Source: Camelus ferus | Lineage: Eukaryota | Direction: 5' to 3' | DNA: 64,000 nt | Assembly (NCBI RefSeq): GCF_009834535.1 | Contig: NC_045696.1 | Coordinates: 63,118,001 to 63,182,000, forward strand | Shown here: positions 4,986 to 39,529 of the stretch, piece after piece | Numbering within the stretch: the first letter of the stretch is position 1 | Layout: every line of letters begins with the position of its first letter | Program-made: the position numbers and the translations under genes | Notes under the pieces: generated by a model | Seen by the model: only the letters and a program-made list of their open reading frames with translations | Told to the model about the DNA's origin: nothing | Database searches by the model: none

Positions 4986-5439
4986 AACGATAGTCAAGTC
5001 CTTCTTTAAGAAAAGTTATTAAAATCAACAAGGAAAACTTGAAATTAGTTTGTTTTCAAGAAAAACAGCTCCGTGTACTTGAATTGAATGGCAGTGTGGC
5101 TGGATGGGAGGGGACAGATTGCAAAAATCACGGGGCTCCCTCGCTGCGGGGGGTCGCCGTCTAGGATGACTTCCAGAGCCCAGCTTGGACAGCTGAGCCA
5201 GGGCAGAGGGTGCAGCTACAGCCTCGGAAAAAAGGGTGAGAGAGGATGTAGCGGGGTGCGTTTGATCCCTCCTTCCCGGCCTCCCATTGCACCCTTTGTA
5301 TGGTGCCATTTTAACCATCAGGAACCAGGCCCCGCTCATCTTGGGATCCCCAGGGCCCAAGCGGCTCCCCAGGCGTGAAGTATATACTGTTTGGTTCAGA
5401 AAATGTGGTGGATTAATGAACAAAGTGCCTCACAGAGAG

Positions 5440-6080
5440 CCGGCAGGTCACTGCATTCCGCTCCGACCGCCAGGTTTGGGGAGTGGTGACAGCCAAGGGG
5501 TCCGCGGGAGCCGCGCCGCCGCTGTCCCGGGGCGGGGGCCGCAGTCTTTGTGCAGAGGTTGCTCACGGCTCCCGCCGCTGGGGGGCGGCCTCCCGCCCGC
5601 CGACCCCCGACAATAGCGCGAGGGGTGGGGAGCCGCGCGGGCCCGGAAACTTTTCCCTGGTGTCTTGGTCGCCGCCCGTCCGGGCCCCGGAGCGCCCATC
5701 TCCCGCCAGCGCTCCGTGCGCTCGGCCGGGGCCGCCGCGGCGGGACGCAACCAAAGAAGGGGGCGCGGGGCTGCAGGGCCCGGGGCTGCGGACAGCTCGG
5801 GAGGTCTCCGGTCACGCGGAGGCGCGGGCACGGGACCGGGCGGAGCCGAGCCAGCCATGGAGGAGGCGCCCAGCCCCGCGCCCGAGCCCGCGCTCTGGTA
5901 CTGGGACTACCTGGACCGCTGCTTCGCTCGCCACCGCGTCTGCATCTCCTTCGGCCTGTGGATCTGCGCCTCCTCGTGCTGGATCGCCGCCCACGCGCTG
6001 TAATGGGGACCGAGACCGTGCGGCGCCGGGGAGGGGGCCGGGTCGGCCGCGGGGGGCCAGGGGCGCTGCCGCCTGCTAAC
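5440..6080 (+). promoter_or_regulatory. TMEM44: CpG island / TMEM44 promoter and exon 1
   Basis: Very GC- and CpG-rich, GC boxes (GGGCGG), surrounds the ATG in gccATGG context. Confidence 0.85.
5857..5999 (+). CDS. TMEM44: TMEM44 coding exon 1 (MEEAPSPAPEPALWYWDYLDRCFARHRVCISFGLWICASSCWIAAHAL)
   Basis: Matches the recalled TMEM44 N-terminus; Kozak gccATGG; donor CT|gtaatg, phase 2. Confidence 0.95.
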
Positions 6081-8456
6081 TCCCTCTTGGAAACCTATGG
6101 GGAAGAGGGCAGGAAGGGAGGAGGCAGCACAATTCTAGGATAGGAAGGAACATTTTGCTGTCGACTGAAATCAGATATTTCTTTCCGGATTCCACGCACG
6201 GGGAGGCTGGGCGGGGAGGCAGCAGGAGGATGCTGGGTGGTGCAGAGGACGGGGCCGTGGACTGAAAGCCACCAGACCCGGGTTCTATTGTCAGCCTTTC
6301 CCCATTGACTGGCCGTGTCAGCTGGGCAAGCTATGAAATCCCTGGGCCTCCTTTTCCTCACGTAAACTCCGGCTGGCTGGGAGGATCAAATGCGTTAGTA
6401 CTGGTAAAGCTCTTTAAGCACTATTATTATTGCTCCAGCTCTGCCACCAACGCTTGGCAGCGGGTGAGGACATCCGACAAGTCTCTCGATGTTTCTGGCC
6501 TCAATTTACCCAAAGACCTCATAGCTGGGAAGTAGGGAGGCGATTATCTGACTCTGACCAGACTTTGCGCTGGGCTGTCCAATACCTGGAGTGGTTTGGC
6601 CACGTGGTCACCACAGCCTGGGTTATAAGGGTGAAATCTGCCTAAAGGTGGTCTTCTGCTACCCTGTCCCAGGCTGGGAAGCATGGTGCCGCCCCCGTAC
6701 TCCCTGGCAGGGGAGAAGGACCAGCACCCTGGTGGAGGCTGGCACCAACTCACCTTCATACCCAATAGATGGTCCCCTCAGGTGTTTGATGTTACAGAGA
6801 TTCTGCAGCCCCATGGCCCAGGCCATGGAATGTGGGGGAAAAAAGACACTTAGAAAATTTACTGAGGGCCCAGTACTGTGTTCATTAACTCACTAATCCC
6901 TGCCACAGCCCAATGAGGTAGGGACTGTCACTGACCCATTTAGATGAGGAAGCTGGGGGTTCTGACAGGTTAACTGACTTGCCTGCATGAATGGGAAAAA
7001 CCGAAACTGAACCTACTAGAAAGGGGCAGGCTCGTGAGGTCAACCACCCAATCAGAGGGTGGGGCTAACGAGGCACTTTACTTGCATTATCTCACTTGTC
7101 CCTCAGGCCACCCTCTGAGGCTGTTATTATTAGCTGTCTTACCCATCTGGAAACCAAGGCTGGAGAGGTTTAAGGACATCCCTCGTGAATGCCCACCGTC
7201 CAGTCTGAGAGCAGAGCCTCTGCCTTTTCGCCTTGCCTCAGCTCTGCGTGGGCTGAGTCAGGGTCAGCCCGCGACCCCTGACCACTGAGAGCTGGGAACA
7301 TGGGGACATGGCACAGAGCAGAGCCTCCACACATAAAGCAGAAGGCCCACTGTTACCACCTTTCATCAGAGGCCTCAGTTTCCTTCTCTCTCAAATGGGA
7401 GGGTTAAAATGAATTATTTCTAATTTGGGTCCAACTCAAGAGAGTCTCTACTGTAGTCTTCACTCTGAGGCCTTGAATTGGTTTCCAGAACTCTGGGGCC
7501 CAAATTAAAGGTTGATGTTCCCATTGTGAGCTTTGAGCTTCATCTGGCCAGTGGGGAAATGTTTGGGAGCCCCATAAACTTCCATCCTTATCCACTATTC
7601 CCAAGGGCTATTGTTCAGAACAGGCCCGTCAGTCCTAACAACATGGAGTGAGTATCACTCTGTCAAAGGAAATGAACACCAGAGCTGTGGTTGTGCCTCA
7701 GTTTCTGCAAAGAAATGCAGCAGGGAAACAGAGAGAGCAAAGCATTTCCAAGATCCCATGTGATGCTGATGGAGAGACTTCTGGCCTCTTCCAGGCTGTC
7801 CCGCCTTCCCGTGCTTGTTCCTGGGTGTATATGGGGGTGGGAAGAGGGCAGTAAGGGAGAGAAGCCAGCAGTGGGGGACGCTGAGGGAGTTCAGCCCAAA
7901 GTGCCGTGGCATCTTCGAGGAGTTTTACTCACCCAAGTGTGTGACAAGCACGCACCCCAAGTGAAATCAGGCTGGATGTGCAGGCTGGCAGAAGCCAGGC
8001 CACCTCACTGCACAGGTGGATGAGAAGGATTTCATTTTCATTTCAAAGAAACAAATTGCCTTTTTAATTTAGGCCATTAACTCTGCTCTGCAGTTAAACT
8101 ACAGTGACTGGGCTGCTTTTATAACTGTCCTGTTTCCTTTCAAAAGATAAAAGCTGACAGCTAGTTTGGCAGCATTGAGTGGTAGGTCATGAACTTGAGG
8201 GGGCCAGATTTGTAGGAAGGAAGACATGCCTCATTTCATGAGGTCCTGCCATGGGTCTTTTGGCCAGAGGCTTGGAGTCTTTCCCTCCTTTTCCCATCTG
8301 TACACTAACATCGAAGGTCAAAAACACCTGCTGAACACCTGGGGAAGGAAGTGATTTGTAAGGACACAAAGTCACAGTTGCCCTTTTCAGACACCTGCTT
8401 TGGGAGCCCAAACTCACATCTCCGTGTTCTGGTCACACCCTTGTCTGTCCCCGCAG

Positions 8457-10860: not shown

Positions 10861-11979
10861 GTGAGTGAGCTGCCATCTGTTCCTCCCTTCATCCATCCAC
10901 TCATTTCACCCATCAGCGTGCTGAGTGCCTCTCCTTGTCACTCCCAAGCTGGGCCCCTGCCGGGCACAGACGAATGGGCGAGCTCCCTGGCCTCAGCCAG
11001 ACAGGGGAGCCAGGGCCCTAAATGGTAGTTAGCGCTGCATGTGAGGGGCTGTAGGCACACAGTGGGCATCTAGAGGAGGGGAAGGGCTGCACGTGTCAGG
11101 GAAGGATGTGATGTCAGAACTGGGACCACAGGGAAGGGCATTCCAGGTGGAAGAGCAGCACGGGCAAAAGCCAGGAAGAGGGAGGGTGCAGGGCTTTGGG
11201 CGTGAACAGTGATGTCTCAGTGCGCCAGTCCAGAGGCTCCAAGCGAAGCCCCACCACTTCTGGAAATAGATGCCAGGAATGGGCTGGAGCCACCTCAGGC
11301 AGAGCGTGGGCTGGAAGTGACTGAGATGGGATGAGTAGCCTTGAGTCTGTGGGACCAGGACATTCCTGAGAAGAGACAGCAGTGTTCTTGGAGCATCGTC
11401 TGAAAAGTGCTTGCATCAGTGGGTGCTATAAGATGCCCTTTGCTCGATGCTGCCCCAAGGAGGAATGTTCTTGTTAGAATTGTTCAGAGGAGGCTCTGTC
11501 TTCTATTTCAAGGATGCTTCTATTTCAAAGATGATGCTTGTCTACTCCTGGTTTTGGTGCCCCGGCACCCGTGTGCCCACTTATGGGTGCGTTCACTAAG
11601 CTTGTACTGGTTCCGCTCTGTGCAGATGATAGAACTGCCAGGGCACAGTGCCTGCCCTCAGGGGACTCCTGTCTAGGACAGGCGACACTGTACACGCAGA
11701 TGCATGTGATCAAGGATAACATCGCCCTGCCTTGAAACATAAAACACTATGAGAGGCGGAGGAAGGGGAACACTGCCAGTCATCTGAGGGTTGGGGGGGC
11801 GGTGCAGGAGGAACTGGGCACAGCCACAGGCCCTTGCGGGGTGGGGAGGGTCTGGCCTATGGGACAGCGTGGGAGCCTGTCGTGGCCTCAGGGCCGGGGT
11901 CGACCCCAGTTCTTCCCACGCAGCTGTCTGTCGAGTTCCAGATCCCGGGAGACCTGCAGGATCTTGGTGTCTGTTGCAG

Positions 11980-12146
11980 GTCGGAGCTCCCAGGAGAGGA
12001 AGAAGAGGCAGCGGCTGAAGGCCAGCGTATTTGCCCTGGCCCTGCCGCTGAGCCTGGGCCCAGGCTGGGCTCTGTGGACCGCTGTCCCAAAGGCTTCAGG
12101 CCCCATCCGAGGGCCGCAGCGGAGGCTGCTGGGAAGCCTGCTACAG
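11980..12146 (+). CDS. TMEM44: TMEM44 exon 4 (GRSSQERKKRQRLKASVFALALPLSLGPGWALWTAVPKASGPIRGPQRRLLGSLLQ)
   Basis: ttgcag| acceptor, |gtgaga donor; 167 nt; homology. Confidence 0.95.
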
Positions 12147-12337
12147 GTGAGACTGCCCAGGAGGACAGGAGGTGGGGGAATGCAGGTCCCTCTCCTCCCT
12201 ACGGTCCTAGCAAATGCCCTGGGGGGTGGGGGACAGGGTTAGGCCTTGTTGGGAAGAACCTCCTAAAAGCAGAAAAGGAGGGGCCTAGGGTGCGTGAGCA
12301 TCTTCTTGGGGTGCTGAGTGTGTCACTGTCCCCACAG

Positions 12338-12424
12338 GACAATACTGAAATCTTCGGCTACCTGCTGGGCAGTATCGCAGCCTTCGGCTCCTGGGCGTCC
12401 CGGATCCCCCCACTCTCCAGAATC
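12338..12424 (+). CDS. TMEM44: TMEM44 exon 5 (DNTEIFGYLLGSIAAFGSWASRIPPLSRI)
   Basis: ccacag| acceptor, |gtgagg donor; 87 nt; homology. Confidence 0.95.
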
Positions 12425-14225
12425 GTGAGGCTGGGGTTGGGACTGTGGGTCACCCTGGCAGGTCTTAGGGCATCTGGGAGCATCCTCCCAGCTTGAGGCC
12501 ACCGGGGTGGAGAGGTGGCATGTGTGTACGCGTGTTTGTGGGCATGTGTGCATTTGTCTATGTGCGCAGGCAGTGGGCAGCCGGCCCCAGGCCTCAGGGA
12601 AGCCCCGAGGCTCACAGGGAGAGCGCACCTGTGTTCTCTCCATTTCTCTAGCAAATGAAAAGCATACGCCATAGGCACAATACTATGAATTTCTGAGGCA
12701 CCACCCAGCAAGGATTTGCCAGGCGGCCACCAGGCAGTCGTCTTCCCAGCCTCTGTACTGACCTGCTAGACTCACGAGTGCTGGAGAAATTCCTGCCACG
12801 CCTCGGATCACCAAGCCAATTCTAATCTTCAAGCAATTATAGAGCACCTACTGTGTGCCCAGCATCTCAGGCAAACAGAACCCTCTAGGTCCTAGTACCA
12901 ACCCTGAAAAAAGCTTCAGTTTTGAGTCAGTGGGTGCAGGGAAAGTGTGGCAGGGGAGCGAGTGCAGGGGGTTCCCCTAGCTCTGGCTCATCCAGAGCGG
13001 CAGCAAGAGCAAGGCCCAGGGCCAGTGGCCCAGGTCCCAGCCGGGCTCTGCAAGTCACCACCCTTCTCTGGCCATCAGTGTCCTCTGTAAAATGGGGGTG
13101 GGTGGGCTAGAGGACCCTCCCAAAGGCTTCTCACCATAGTGGTGTTGCCTGGGCTGTGTGAGGTGGGAAGCAGTGTCTCCACCTGCAGCCTTTGGGGCCA
13201 GCAGGCCAGGGGCCACCCTCCTTGGTGGGGTGCTGCCTATTCTGGGGGTAGCGGGCCAGAAACAGGGCAGCCTGGGAACAAAACTAGAAAAAATGCTGAG
13301 GGAGATGGAAAAGTCTTTTTGAGAGTTAAAATTAAAATGGAGAAAATCAGACAACACATGCTTTTTCTCTTGAATATTTTCCATTCCTTAGCCAAGGCTT
13401 GTATTCTTTAAATATAGTCATCTAATGAGCAAACTAAGTTATGTATGATATAATTTATATTTATGTATTTAAATATCCATGCAATTGCATATAATTGGAA
13501 ATACATAGTATTTGTGTATTTAGCGTGAGTTTCTACCTGTAAAGGCTACATATATATATATATAAATAGTACATGTTTCCTTTTTAAAAAACCAATACTT
13601 CCATTACTCATTCTCCAAAAATATCTTCTTGGCTTCAAAATTTCCAGAATGTTATGTGTAATTTTCCTGACTTTCCCATCTGTCCTGGTTTACCATTGGT
13701 GGTCGCAGGAAGAGAAGGGTCAGACCTTGGCTCTCCATAATTCAGTCTTCCCCATGCTCTCCCTGCTGACATTCACAAGCCCCTGTCCAGTGCTGGGGAC
13801 CAGGGCACTGAGAGGGTGAGGATCTCAGCCCTGCCCTCAGGAGCCCTCTGTCTGTTGAGCAGACAGATGTGTGAGGAGCTAAGTCATGATCAGGGATAAA
13901 GGCACTCCAATAGAGGGGTATGTCAGGTGTGAGGGACCCAGAAGAGGGAGTTACTTGTTCCCTTTAGGGTAGAGGTAGTAAGGGATGGTTTCCCAGAGCT
14001 GAGTTCAAGCCAGGTTCTGAGGGATGACCAGGCATTCATTGGGCAAAAGAAGCAGCTTGAACAAAAGCTGGAAGCCCAACAGAAGTAGCACCCTTGGGGA
14101 ATAGCCATGGGCAGAGGGCTTGCCCTCCAACCCCCAGGTGCCTGGGTATTAGAATCGGCTCTAAGGGAGCTGGGGTGGGGGGTGACAGTGTCCCTCCCAG
14201 CCCACCCTTTGCTCTCTTTGCCCAG

Positions 14226-33950: not shown

Positions 33951-35700
33951 TCCTGATTGAGTGAACTAAAGTATCTCACCATGGAGCACAGAGATATGTC
34001 TGAATCCCAGCACAGCCACAGAAGCCTGCCATGAGAGGATCTGGGGGAAATGTCAAGAAACACAGTCCTGTTCCTGGCTGTCCCCTAGCAGCCTGTGTGA
34101 CTCAGCTGCAGCTGCCCAATTGCTCCTAAGGGGTAGTTCAAGTTGCAGCAGCATGAAAGGGGTGCCTCACGGAAGCAGGTTGGTTTCACAGGTCTCTGCA
34201 GGGATTCCAATCCCCAGTGTGACCTCTGAACTAGAAGTGAACTTAAAGCCACCCTATTTACCCAACTGCTTTGGACCGTGCTTGTCTTGTAATAGAGTTT
34301 GCTAAAGTCAGTTTTGCTCTGTGATCTTAATCACCAAAGCTGTACTTTGAGGGAAGATGAAACTTTGAATTGAGGTGCAGGGGTTGGGAGAGTGTTCTGG
34401 CAGAGGAAACCACACAGGATTAGAAGCAGGGAAGAGAGGAATCTAGCCAAGGAAAGAGGAATCTGATGTGACCAGAATGGGTGTAGGGAGTGGGTGAAGG
34501 GGCTGAAAAGGAACCTGGGAGCTGGTACTTAATTCTGTGGGTGACTGGTAGCTATTGCAAGATCCCAGAGTAGGAAAATGGCATGCCTTAGAGAGACCAC
34601 AGCTGACTGGTGAGTTTTACATCCCTATGGCCACAACTTTTCAGGAAGCAGAAATGTAGTCAAGGATACAGTACAGACTTGGGGAACGTGTTTCATCTGA
34701 TTGGTAACAGCAGGGCAGGAAGAGGGCTCATCTTGGGAAACGCAGAAGGCGTGGTAGTAGGATGACATCCCTGGAGTTCGCCTTTAGCACATTCCCCTCT
34801 CTCCCAAGGGGAGGCTGGCTCATGCTCTGTGGGGCACCCGAAACTGGTTGGCTCCTGATAGAAATGGCCATTCACTCAAGAACATCAAATGATCTTGCTG
34901 ACTTTGAGCAGCACAAACTACTTGAGCTCCAGATGTTGACCATTTCTCTGGACCCCATCGTCCCAGCCTCTTCCTTCACAAACTAGTATTTAGTGTTGTC
35001 CAAGCTTGTCTCAAAATTGAATCCCAAGTCTCTTCATCCAGAGTGAACCTTTAAACTGAGCAATTTTGGAAGCAAAGTGTGGCCTCATTGTTCAATGGGA
35101 ATCTGCCTGTTATGCAAAGCTCTGGAACTCTGGGGCCTTCATGAAGAGGTGCCAATCAAAATGCCTTTCTCCTAGCAGGCATCCTTCTAGCTGCCTTGGG
35201 CCTCCATTGCAGCTTCATCCCTCACTGTTAGTCTGACTAGGAGGATAATGGGAGTTACTTGTCCTGAAGACTCACTGAACAGTGCAAGACGCTGCCTACA
35301 CTGGGGAGAAGCTGGGGAACAAATTGTGTGATCATCTGCCCAATCACCTGGAGATGAAAGATGGTGTAACAGTTGCACCTACTGTCTGCATGGCTTGGAG
35401 CTTGTTACCCAACCTTTGCGAACTCATGGGTAAACTGAGAATAACACCTACTTAGAAAGCTCGTTGTGAAGATTAAGTAAATGAACATATATGAATGCAA
35501 AACACTATGTGACTCAAAGTAGACATTAAAGAGGGATTAGTTTCCTTCCTCCCTACAATTCCTGGCTACATATGCCCTGAAAACCAGTTAGTGACCAAGA
35601 ATCAGATCCACAGATGGAAGGAGCTTCAGAGGACTGAATCCCCTTGACTACAACCCCAGTAAGTGATTATCCAACCAACCAAGTAGTTTAAACTACTCCA

Positions 35701-35757
35701 AAAAAAAAAAAAAAAAAGAAAGAAAGAAAGAAAGAAAGAGAAAGAAAAAGAAGAAAA
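35701..35757. repeat. A-run plus (GAAA)n purine tract
   Basis: Direct read. Confidence 0.9.
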
Positions 35758-36079: not shown

Positions 36080-37242
36080 TTTCTTTTCTTTTTTTCCTTT
36101 TATGAATGTGTCAGTGAATTTTTATTTCCTACATAAGACTGGCATCTTCATAAACTCTCAAGAAAGAAACATTATAATATTATTTCAGATACACTTTAAA
36201 CATAGGTTTCATTGTATAATATATACTTCTCTCTCTTTGGATTTTATTATCCATTTACAATAAAATTCTCCTTCTGTGAAGAACCCAGGCTTTGCTGTAA
36301 TATGACAAGATCACAGCATTTGACATTTAAAATTTTTGCAGTTTCCTTCCAGTACTGAAAATCAAAAAATACGATATATGACTATTTTTTATGGTGACAG
36401 AAAAAGAATTCTGTATCAATCATTAAGAAAAAGAAGAGAGATGTCTTAGGCGTGTTTCAAGACTAATTTTGCAACATTTCCAAGATTCTCTCCACTTCTT
36501 TTTCTGTCCCTTCTTGATCATCCTCCTCTACATCTTCCAACTGTGAGGGTTCTACTCTCTTCCACTTTTGTTTTTTTTCTGACGTTCAAGTCAATACTTT
36601 GGCAGAGAAGGCTCTGCCTTGAAGAACAAGAGATTTGGTGCCATGGTGACTAAAATCTCTTAAAGATGTTTACCAGTCCTGTCCGGTATTATTCCAAAAG
36701 TTATCATCAGGTGAGAGGGACAATCTTAGACAAGACAGAACTTCAAGGAATGGTGCTAAATCAAGTGACTTAGAGCACATCTGATTTGCTTTTACTTTAC
36801 CTAACTCTGAAAGCCAAACGAGGCGCTGGGCATCCAGGACCGCTTCTTTTGGACCGGACACTTCATTCAACAGCGTATTAACTTCAAGTGTCTCAGTTAA
36901 TCTGGAGAACTCAGCATACCCACCCAATTCCATTATAAAATTCCCACTCGCTGTTGGTATCGGTGGCAGAGGGCAGCGCTCTCCTCTTCCTGGTCCTCGG
37001 AGTCTTCAGCTCTGATTGCAGCAGGGCTTAGTCCCTGTCGGGGGTCAGGGGCGCTCCCCCAGTCCTCACCCTCCACTGGGCTCCTCACGACCGTCCTGGT
37101 GGGGCAGTAAGTGGTCTCCTCAAGCTGCAGCGGGGAAGGAGGCCTCTGTTCGCACTGGCAGAATTGAATCCCGGCTCCTACTGGCTATCTCTCCGGGGGA
37201 AAAGCCGCCAAACCGCAGCAGCTTGCCATTCACTAAAACCAT
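36080..37242 (-). pseudogene. Intronless NSMCE4A/EID3-family retro-pseudogene
   Basis: Collinear - strand segments EESAALCHRYQQ, LTETLEVNTLLNEVSGPKEAVLDAQRLVWLSELGKVKANQM, FKAEPSLPKY*LERQKK, PSQLEDVEEDDQEGTEKEVERILEMLQ and IDT/NSFSVTIKN match recalled NSE4A/EID3 motifs; stops and frameshifts; AATAAA (36126-36121) plus A-rich tail (36101-36080). Confidence 0.88.
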
Positions 37243-37321
37243 TGCCTGGGGACTTCCGGGAAGGGAGGAAATGCGCGGCTTGGTGCGTTCGCACTGCGCA
37301 GCCTCCGACTCCGCGAGTCCC

Positions 37322-37412
<91 letters not shown>

Positions 37413-37495
37413 GCGCGCGCGGGTCCCGGCCCCGCCGCCCCGCCGCCTTCGCGCCCAGGCCTCGAGGGAACTGCCGAGGGCGGCTCCTAGTATGC
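37160..37495. promoter_or_regulatory. Second CpG island; probable promoter 5' of the retrocopy
   Basis: CpG-dense; ETS/GABPA site CCGGAAGT (37259-37252, - strand); TGCGCA at 37295; GC boxes after the repeat. Confidence 0.7.
37325..37411. repeat. Pure (CCG)29 / (CGG)29 trinucleotide repeat
   Basis: 87 nt uninterrupted, followed by (CG)n. Confidence 0.97.
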
Positions 37496-39529
37496 GTTTG
37501 ACACCAATGGTTTTTTAAGGTGATAATTATAAGATTATTTTACCGTTCCTGTTGTATTTGAGTTCGTTCAGCATCCTTTGTGGTGTACTGTAAAGCATTC
37601 TCTTCTTTGTTTTAAAACTTATTTAAAATGTTTTTTTTAAATATAGTGCAGTTACACTTTTTTTTTTAAAGTGAACAGATTGTAACAAGGTTTATGAAGG
37701 AAAGCAGCAGTGTCCTGCTTTCACGCATTTTTTTTTTTTTTGAGGCCACCGGCTTTAACTGTTTTTGTTTGTTCTAGGAATTTTCTCCTTTAGGTTTGAT
37801 TTCAAATATGCTTTCCAGCTGTACTTTTCAAAGATTATACTTTTTTTTTCCTTAGCTAGATTATCTGCAACTTGCATTAAGTAGACTAATGAGACAGCAC
37901 AGCTAGGACTGGGCAACTGGTGTATTAAGAACTGTTTGTGAAAACTGTATTTGCATCCTTCGAGTTGCTATGGAATCCGTGCCAGGGCACCTTCGAACGC
38001 CGCTGTTCCTGAGCTAGCTTTCAACTTCTGAGTCCAGCCCCCGCCAGCTGATGTCTGCTTTCAGGGTAATTGGAGAGGCCCACTCCCCTGGTCTGAACTT
38101 GACCTTGACTTTCATCAGGGTGTCCTAGTACTTGGAGCGTCTCCAGTGCAAGTCTGTGGGATTTTCTAAACCGGCAGCTGGAACAAGGGGTCTCCTCCAG
38201 TGCAGCCATTGCAGTCTTTCCCAAAGCAGCCTGATCACGTATGAAAAGAGCTATCCCATAGGGCTTTCCTTCTAACCAGCAATGCACTTTGGAATAAGTA
38301 TGTCCTAAAGCTCTGTGGGTGATATCTATTCAAATAGATCTGGGCAGGGCCTGGGAATCTTTAACAAGCTCAGTTGATTTCTGAGAACACTGCGCTAAGG
38401 AAATTACTTTTAAAGCTGATCTATTTGTATGAGATGTTCTCATAAAACTATTTACAGTAGCACACACAAACACACACAACATGATAAGGACCCAAAACTC
38501 TACTTGTTGGGAAAGATTAAACATTATACTTTTATGAAGAAATACTATTTTGCCATTAAACCTAAAAGATCATAGACCCAGAGACTGAAGAACAGAATGG
38601 AATTACCTGGAAATTATCTAGTTGGTGCCTGAATGGCTTGCTTATTCTCACAACATGAATTGCCAGTTCTAATTTTGTAAGAAAAATCTGCGAGAGACAA
38701 TGTTAAGTAACAAAAGTAGAATACAAGAGAGTGTGTGCCACTGTTAGGAATTGTATTTAAAACATTGTTTACTAATATCAGATGAGTCTTAAAAGTCATG
38801 ATGAGATTTCCTGTGTAGTAAAGGGATTATGTTGGTTCTTGTAGTAGTGGTTTCTTGACTGTGGAAGCAGTTAAATACATTCCCCAATTTAAAAAGATCT
38901 CCCCCTGAATTCCCTTTCCTTACAGGTTTGCAGTATAAATCTCTGGTTCCAAGAGAAACCCCTTGGCTCAAGCGGCTGTAGTTCCAGTTCATTGCCAGTC
39001 ACATTCCCCAAGACCAAAGAAAGGTAAAGGGAGACCAAATAGCAACGACTCCCAAACCAGGGGAAATAGGCAGGACCGAGCCCCTGAGAAGACATGACAT
39101 CCAAGTTGCTATTTAAAAGCAAGGCAGGAAAATTAAAAGGAAAGAATTTTTTTTAAAGAGTTCTTAGTATGAGTAAGAAAAAAGGCATATATATATAAGT
39201 AACTCTGTCAGGGATATATTTATCAATATTATGCTTTTTAATAGTTTTTGGTGCTTTATAAACTTTTTCAATTGATATATCTATTATATAATCAGACAAA
39301 ATAAGCTTAAGAAATTTTATAAAGAAAAGATTATAAATACATACATGTTTCCCTCAAATAACATTCACATAAACATTAGAAAGGGGAAGTTTGTAACTAT
39401 ACTGTGTATTGTGCATGGATTTTTCATCTTGCTCTCTGTGTGTATGTAGAAATTATATTTCCTTTATACTTTTCAGTATTTTATACCTTGTCTGTAATGA
39501 GTATTTCTTTCTTAGGTAAAAACAAAGTG

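Follow-up and report, generated by a model that had tools for sequence, protein, structure and literature searches.

Up to the non-placental mammals Nse4 is a single-copy gene, and placentals have up to 5 NSE4/EID copies; in these animals the NSE4/EID and NSE3/MAGE families expanded together (both points as given in PMC3335016). NSMCE4A and EID3 are treated as the two mammalian Nse4 paralogues in PMC11431564, and a full-text literature search returned nothing on NSMCE4A, EID3 or NSE4 pseudogenes. The locus described here lies on the minus strand of a 64-kb stretch of camelid DNA (the window; C1:63118001-63182000 of a 2.09-Gb assembly, with positions below counted from the first letter of the window), and very probably arose long ago as a processed retrocopy of the mRNA for NSMCE4A, the SMC5/6 kleisin subunit.

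The relatives of the locus within the same genome offer the closest comparison. NSMCE4A itself lies on contig C11, where 10 coding exons could be assembled into an intact 385-aa protein, of which 362 of the 385 residues are identical to cetacean NSMCE4A. EID3 (NSMCE4B), like the locus, derives from NSMCE4A and has no introns. Its 3'UTR, too, aligns with the spliced last exon of the parent and has an A-run at the same aligned end point; by 3'UTR distance the two are about equally old, and they fall in the same tree group (support 95/87). Unlike the locus, EID3 is intact (370 aa, on contig C12; 99% identical to Camelus dromedarius EID3), lies far above threshold for both Pfam domains (56.9 bits with PF15412) and is conserved in dozens of mammals, whereas the locus resides on a different contig, is broken in every species in which it was seen and forms a clade of its own (100/99). 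The genome also contains two ordinary processed pseudogenes of NSMCE4A (contig C1 at 40.00 Mb and contig C21 at 2.33 Mb). They have the same parent as the locus and are likewise intronless and disabled, but at the nucleotide level they are still 73% (751 nt) and 71% (326 nt) identical to that parent. The locus is only 61% identical at the nucleotide level over 569 aligned columns, which implies that it is much older, and unlike these pseudogenes it has orthologues in another mammalian order. It also keeps remnants of both kleisin ends, which EID1, EID2 and EID2B lack according to PMC3335016.

Read from 5' to 3' on the minus strand, the locus and its direct surroundings comprise the following features (codon numbers refer to NSMCE4A):

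37250..37520, no strand assigned: small CpG island, GC 0.80, CpG observed/expected 1.33
37323-37447, inside the CpG island: (CGC)41 triplet array, making up almost half of the island
37035..37249, minus strand: GC-rich stretch in the position expected for the 5'UTR and first 65 codons of the parent, homology not demonstrable
36936..37007, minus strand: block A, EDSEDQEEESAALCHRYQQRVGIL, about codons 66-97, i.e. an acidic stretch and the start of the LC..YR helix
36935-36933, minus strand: TAA stop after block A (GIL-stop-WNW)
36670..36900, minus strand: block B and linker, LTETLE-VN...LVWLSELGKVKANQM at 36900-36778, corresponding to the Nse3/MAGE-binding region
36573..36665, minus strand: block C, L-stop-EILVTMAPNLLFFKAEPSLPKY-stop-LERQKK, in a frame that differs from that of block B and with two stops
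36545..36574, minus strand: short block KTKVEESRTL in a third frame, with the 5'-side frame change within an A-run
36412..36549, minus strand: block D, PSQLEDVEEDDQEGTEKEVERILEMLQN-stop-S-stop-NTPKTSLFFFLMIDT, covering the conserved EATEKEVERILGLLQ helix and the beginning of Nse4_C, with two stops
36366..36410, minus strand: block E, NSFSVTIKNSHISYF, about codons 297-312 of Nse4_C
36288..36375, minus strand: C-terminal remnant, IVFFDFQYWKETAK and then F-stop-MSNAVILSYYSKA, in two frames, about codons 351-380
36102..36287, minus strand: 3'UTR of the retrocopy, collinear with the spliced parent 3'UTR (exon 10 tail and non-coding last exon)
36259..36264, plus strand: AATAAA inside the retrocopy 3'UTR
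36126-36121, minus strand: AATAAA poly(A) signal of the retrocopy
36081..36101, minus strand: A-rich run left over from the poly(A) tail, immediately beyond the end point of the parent mRNA

An earlier note, made from the letters of the window, had described a decayed, intronless NSMCE4A/EID-like gene by means of five translated blocks (A to E), and reverse-strand translation of 37300-36300 returned all five where they had been placed. Taken over the whole of 37007-36288, the reverse-strand frames contain eight collinear blocks of NSE4-family protein. Block B is part of a 111-aa open frame (37005-36673), in which it is followed by a shortened linker that terminates at a TAA. Block C, given before as FKAEPSLPKY-stop-LERQKK with its end at 36573, has a TGA within KY-stop-LER where the parent has the arginine codon CGA, in agreement with the TGA aligned to Arg in the earlier note. 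After block E, which ends at about codon 312, some 38 codons of Nse4_C are gone, as the next block starts at about codon 351. That next block, i.e. the C-terminal remnant, reached a score of 38 in a frameshift-aware alignment, against 19.8 +/- 3.3 for shuffled sequence, and 0 of 30 shuffles attained 38; a wider first test for remaining Nse4_C below 36369 had given a score not above that of the shuffles, whereas this narrower test of the C-terminus did. The copy thus extends 3' of the blocks recognized before, as it includes the C-terminal remnant (taken there at 36392-36291), the 3'UTR, the poly(A) signal and the A-rich tail down to about 36081. The degree of disruption had been put at about five frameshifts and several stops; the disruption is real but the count was too low, since the camelid locus has at least seven frame changes and six stops (namely, the one after GIL, those in L-stop-EIL and KY-stop-LER, the two after LQN, and the one in F-stop-MS). 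With these at least seven frame changes and six in-frame stops, and with about 38 Nse4_C codons missing, the camelid locus is now unable to encode a kleisin.

The identity of the locus was assessed by searches at the protein level. All 12 NSMCE4A proteins used as tblastn queries match 36903-36403 with E-values from 9e-17 to 4e-14, and 4 of 4 EID3 proteins match the same interval with E-values from 5e-11 to 3e-8. The EID3 protein of the same genome, searched against the whole 64-kb window, hits 36900-36403 (E 4e-11, tblastn), and a genome-wide search with EID3 recovers the locus as well. In a phmmer search of the PDB, the sole chain matched by the 111-aa open piece was that of EID3 (9lwi_D, E 3e-4). 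For the comparison over the full length we wrote a frameshift-aware protein-to-DNA alignment, which places NSMCE4A codons 28-312 on 37182-36363 with 109 of 307 positions identical; the corresponding figures are 103/295 with opossum NSMCE4A as the guide and 77/204 with EID3. The reference motifs given in the earlier note agree with the actual NSMCE4A (P0110) and own-genome EID3 sequences, and the collinear tblastn matches (E down to 9e-17) bear out the proposed NSE4/EID identity. The two Pfam models that had been put forward for the same purpose did not: Nse4-Nse3_bdg (PF15412) gave 12.7 bits (E 0.14) on the 111-aa piece, below its curated cut-off of 23 and as the only match of any kind among the eight stop-free camelid pieces, whereas Nse4_C (PF08743, cut-off 26 bits) matched none of these eight pieces, and the window is absent from the 3 places listed in a whole-genome scan with PF08743. 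That the similarity reflects chance or low complexity, and that no true NSE4 relic is present, would be in line with these sub-threshold domain scores and with the insignificance of the N-terminal part, but we consider it practically out of the question, given E-values down to 9e-17, eight blocks in collinear order, a 3'UTR homology that spans a splice junction (see below) and orthologues in other mammals that carry features specific to the locus. Chance similarity was therefore rejected on the tblastn matches and the 3'UTR homology. The locus belongs to the NSE4/EID family, in a decayed and intronless form.

The retro-origin follows from the 3' end in particular. The 3'UTR of the parent contains an intron, whose canonical donor lies 12 nt past the stop and whose canonical acceptor follows some 925 nt further on, and the blocks of the locus run uninterrupted across the exon junctions of the parent, including this one. 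Positions 36253-36099 match NSMCE4A genomic DNA 947-1107 nt past the stop (67%, E 6e-11, blastn) and the EID3 3'UTR 57-226 nt past its stop (64%, E 1e-9, blastn). From where the coding similarity ends to where the last exon begins there are 34 nt in the locus and 40 nt in the spliced mRNA, and in a three-way alignment EID3 has its A-run at the same point as the A-rich tail of the locus. The claim that the copy is intronless consequently holds and can be extended, in that the 3'UTR intron of the parent is missing too, and a poly(A) signal and a tail are found. Its collinearity across the 3'UTR intron, its AATAAA and its A-rich tail mark the locus as the processed retrocopy of an NSE4 mRNA that had been spliced and polyadenylated. 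What this shows is that such an NSMCE4A transcript was reverse-transcribed and then inserted, which placed the copy tail to tail with, and just 3' of, a neighbour gene on the plus strand.

The 5' end is not defined, which counts among the points against this reading, since nothing upstream of about 37035 is significantly parent-like. At the age of the copy, a target-site duplication would be expected to have eroded. At the protein level the comparison of that region with the parent scored 33, against 32 +/- 4.7 for shuffles (14 of 30 were as good), and at the nucleotide level the comparison of the 5'UTR/exon 1 region scored 12, against 12.1 +/- 1.7 (122 of 200 were as good). The earlier note had called the N-terminus unrelated, which these scores neither support nor contradict. 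The stretch does contain an ATG (37242-37240) and, at 37259-37252, CCGGAAGT, both on the minus strand. Matches between the (CGC)n array and the promoter of the parent were obtained by blastn in both orientations and were discarded as compositional. The CpG island to which the earlier note had pointed at this end is indeed there; nearly half of it consists of the (CGC)41 array, which makes it in part a microsatellite. By itself the island is no proof of past function. Exon 1 of NSMCE4A is similarly CpG-rich, and the island of the locus may therefore be inherited from it.

Outside the camelids, a word-index search with the 111-aa piece returned one longer protein, namely a 208-aa 'hypothetical protein, partial' of Diceros bicornis minor (P0001), which is 81% identical over the best block in that search and 58% identical in tblastn (E 3e-36), and which retains part of the Nse4_C that is missing from the camelid. 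Its Pfam scores are sub-threshold (12.7 bits with PF15412 and 14.7 bits with PF08743), and on five orthologue fragments the Pfam matches were sub-threshold or irrelevant. When P0001 was used as the query in a full HMMER scan of 1.84 billion representatives, 13 matches were obtained: the query itself, nine NSE4A/EID3 proteins and three short ORFs with locus-specific features. A profile search gave 35 matches, six of them from the locus (including the window's own ORF) and the other 29, owing to the length filter, being non-mammalian NSE4A. The ORFs that carry locus-specific features are P0129/P0132, P0130, P0131 and P0134. Some of these are open where the camelid is not: P0132, from another mammal, has blocks A and B in a single open frame; P0131 reads LQNYSG at the place of the two stops in block D; the rhinoceros model (KFEESRAMP) and P0131 (KVEERRAIP) both continue into the next block without a shift; and the rhinoceros model retains RDGLARMRLDKNKLPVIEPLNEESE where the camelid lost its codons after block E. 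The orthologues seen are nevertheless ORFs of 51-97 aa (P0132 being the one of 97 aa) or the 208-aa patched model, and no intact orthologue was found in the three large protein searches. Broken orthologues are present in the black rhinoceros, as a gene model, and in two or more further mammals.

For the phylogenetic analysis a tree was made of 45 proteins over 358 columns, for which the program warns of long branches. The five locus sequences form one clade (support 100/99; stem length 1.12), and cluster with NSMCE4A and EID3 of eutherians (95/87), separately from the NSE4A of marsupials, birds, reptiles, amphibians and fish. The tree thereby upholds the earlier suggestion of a separate family lineage beside NSMCE4A and EID3. 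Within the group, the maximum-likelihood tree joins NSMCE4A and EID3 to the exclusion of the locus (93/82). Two alternatives survived AU tests, namely a locus-EID3 clade (p 0.25) and a position of the locus outside every therian sequence, which would mean an origin before the marsupial split (p 0.32), so that both the parent and the age have to be read as best estimates. The 3'UTR branch lengths (149 columns) are 0.29 for the locus, 0.26 for the parent and 0.20 for EID3, close to a three-way split. On the basis of the tree and these 3'UTR distances, the locus is probably about as old as EID3 and dates from the eutherian stem. The insertion would accordingly fall at about the time at which EID3 arose, most likely on the eutherian stem, for which the evidence is partial, and in any case before the split of camelids and rhinoceroses.

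The locus could also have been copied from EID3, either as an mRNA retrocopy or by DNA duplication, and not directly from NSMCE4A. The surviving AU alternative allows for this, the states FK.EPS, NSFS and the RLE-type are common to the locus and EID3, and so are several 3'UTR states and an 8-nt segment that are absent from the parent. These similarities are open to other explanations, however, because the shared protein states occur in non-eutherian NSE4A as well and are therefore ancestral, and in the 3'UTR the lineage of the parent may have changed the shared states afterwards. Moreover, the locus has the opossum-like states MLSS and KANQ at positions where NSMCE4A and EID3 share others, NSMCE4A queries outscore EID3 queries in tblastn, and the locus is identical to NSE4A of any tetrapod at 79-84 of 213 columns but to EID3 at 68-71 of 213. 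Together with the preference of the maximum-likelihood tree for NSMCE4A with EID3, and the locus outside, this makes an EID3 origin unlikely in our view. The locus represents a sixth lineage of the placental NSE4/EID burst, about as old as EID3 or older, and it therefore dates the start of the retrocopying of the SMC5/6 kleisin. It also provides a natural comparison, in which one retrocopy (EID3) survived and the other died.

The earlier note had gone further, in that it took the copy for one that was once functional and not dead on arrival. In its full form this would imply a working, fast-evolving sixth NSE4/EID gene in early placentals, with a frame that stayed open over tens of millions of years before several lineages lost the gene independently, an option that we rate as serious, although at slightly under an even chance. 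One argument for it is the pattern of shared deletions. Relative to NSE4 there are five, each present in at least two species and all multiples of three: 4 codons in CRQ(IRHQ)YR, 1 codon in LE-VN, 2 codons in CSK--SLD, about 16 codons in the linker and 4 codons in AP...PK, where the camelid and P0131 have 15 residues and opossum has 19. If no more than about a third of neutral indels are multiples of three, the finding of 5 in-frame deletions out of 5 has a p of <=0.004, or about 0.03 if two unseen frameshifts are allowed. How many separate events the linker loss represents varies with the alignment, which counts against the argument. A second argument is that the overlapping frames of P0132, the camelid, the rhinoceros model and P0130/P0131 place no frameshift or stop on the stem within parent codons 66-225 and 243-280. 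Under steady build-up we would estimate about 3 to 4 stem lesions in these codons, since the camelid path carries about 14 lesions and the stem makes up about half of its length; yet one frame change (LERQKK/KVEE) may be common to the camelid and the rhinoceros, as judged from the protein only, an indication to which we give no weight. Similarly, at least six camelid lesions are bridged by the open frame of another species, namely the stop that follows GIL, the frame change separating blocks A and B, those at 36686-36648 and near 36550, the pair of stops behind LQN and the loss of 38 codons. Also the CpG island that is still found at the 5' end can be counted in favour of a coding phase.

The substitution patterns point both ways. 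Over 123 codons the locus branch has lengths of 0.35, 0.26 and 0.49 at codon positions 1, 2 and 3, with a mean of 0.37, which is close to the 0.29 of the 3'UTR. That position 2 is the shortest (0.26, versus 0.49 at position 3) is what a coding phase would yield, but the excess at position 3 can equally reflect the decay of the GC-rich third positions of the parent, and a protein-guided alignment biases positions 1 and 2 toward matching. Taken together, the codon-position and 3'UTR branch lengths fit mostly neutral decay. In columns that are invariant between NSE4A and EID3 we counted 10 stem changes against 27 lineage-specific ones, and in variable columns 17 against 64 (odds ratio 1.4, Fisher p 0.49). 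The invariant columns thus changed on the stem as often, relative to later change, as the variable ones, which argues against a coding phase, as it means that the canonical kleisin residues were under no extra constraint on the stem. To this should be added that an intact orthologue is absent from the 13 HMMER matches and from the other large protein searches, all orthologues being a fragment or a patched model. Open-frame length as such (111 aa for the camelid and 97 aa for P0132) was dropped as evidence of constraint, because at about 14 lesions per 300 codons frames of that length are not rare by chance. Preserved motifs and diverged linkers, the argument of the earlier note, are to be expected for a neutral copy as well, considering that the linkers of the parent drift too.

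The assertion of a formerly functional gene is therefore favoured by the in-frame shared deletions and the bridged lesions, and opposed by the absence of an intact orthologue from the three large protein searches, by the unprotected invariant residues and by branch lengths that fit mostly neutral decay. For the history of the locus we would lean, though not by much, towards mostly neutral decay over a long phase as a working protein, and the odds of a coding phase of any kind are, in our judgement, somewhat worse than even. A more specific scenario, which we offer tentatively and hold to be less probable than the coding phase itself, is that placentals once had a third full-length NSE4 kleisin paralogue, which was retrocopied at or before the origin of EID3, stayed open through five in-frame deletions while it diverged rapidly from the canonical kleisin residues, was lost independently in several orders, and would survive as a transcribed non-coding locus with its own CpG-island/triplet-repeat promoter, convergent with its neighbour. 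If there was a coding phase, the locus constitutes a case of the birth and death of a kleisin paralogue. If there was none, the locus amounts to an ordinary processed pseudogene of unusual age, and its main use is in annotation, as the locus has been called as a protein in the rhinoceros assembly.

With respect to present activity, 20 of the 24 listed sequencing runs hold at least half of the sampled words from 36200-37300 in a run index, and the two runs on record as RNA hold 0.91 and 0.84 of them, figures that are derived from the run index only. The locus is probably transcribed as non-coding RNA. Such a transcript would be its remaining product, probably starting in the CpG-rich (CGC)41 region, for which the CpG island may be the promoter, and ending at the inherited AATAAA.

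The plus-strand neighbour had been named TMEM44 in the earlier note. Pfam gave no match on 6 plus-strand ORFs, and an Atlas search returned PQ-loop-like leads only, at 0.86, and no usable match for the first exon, so that the name was not confirmed by these searches. The plus-strand AATAAA within the 3'UTR of the retrocopy may be the poly(A) signal of this neighbour, in which case the 3' ends of the two may overlap.

The state of NSMCE4A codons ~219-232 differs across the family in the protein alignment, where eutherian NSMCE4A reads SIQGE.P and the marsupial, bird and reptile NSE4A sequences carry F(K/T).DPP at the corresponding position, the F residues being absent from the bird row. Both FKSEPS in EID3, the intact intronless paralogue, and FKAEPS in the window locus are nearer to this non-eutherian form than to SIQGE.P; the parent was therefore altered at this stretch once both copies had arisen. 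NSMCE4A in the window's genome (contig C11, ~9.149 Mb; L014/L015) has a 3'UTR intron of ~925 nt that begins 12 nt past the stop codon, and its last exon is wholly non-coding.

Besides the window locus, the genome contains three disabled NSE4-like copies:

L006, C1:40001173-40001400, 73% identity to NSMCE4A mRNA, 751 nt
L005, C21:2325561-2325848, 71% identity to NSMCE4A mRNA, 326 nt
L003, C3:115027955-115028191, weak match to the C-terminal domain Nse4_C only, 6 stops

The identities of the first two to the mRNA indicate that they are processed pseudogenes younger than the window retrocopy.

The following features lie at or near the two ends of the retrocopy (window coordinates):

37323-37447, (CGC)41 triplet array, 87% matches, within a 270-bp CpG island
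37259-37252, ETS-like CCGGAAGT, immediately upstream of an ATG
36259-36264, plus strand, AATAAA inside the retrocopy 3'UTR (36081-36287 with the A-rich tail, minus strand)

Triplet arrays of such length are frequently polymorphic. Because the AATAAA lies on the plus strand within the retrocopy 3'UTR, the convergent 3' ends of the retrocopy and its plus-strand neighbour, a candidate TMEM44, may overlap. For this neighbour, a CpG island within 5000-6100 (GC 0.65) includes the ORF part 5860-6003, which could well be the first coding exon, and further plus-strand exons follow downstream. In the stretch 11750-12500, the plus-strand ORF at 11753-12496 is assigned PQ-loop-like features by the Atlas at a fairly high score. 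A purine-rich tandem array of AAAAAAAG-like units (period 8-12) occupies 35700-35757, ~330 nt past the retrocopy tail.
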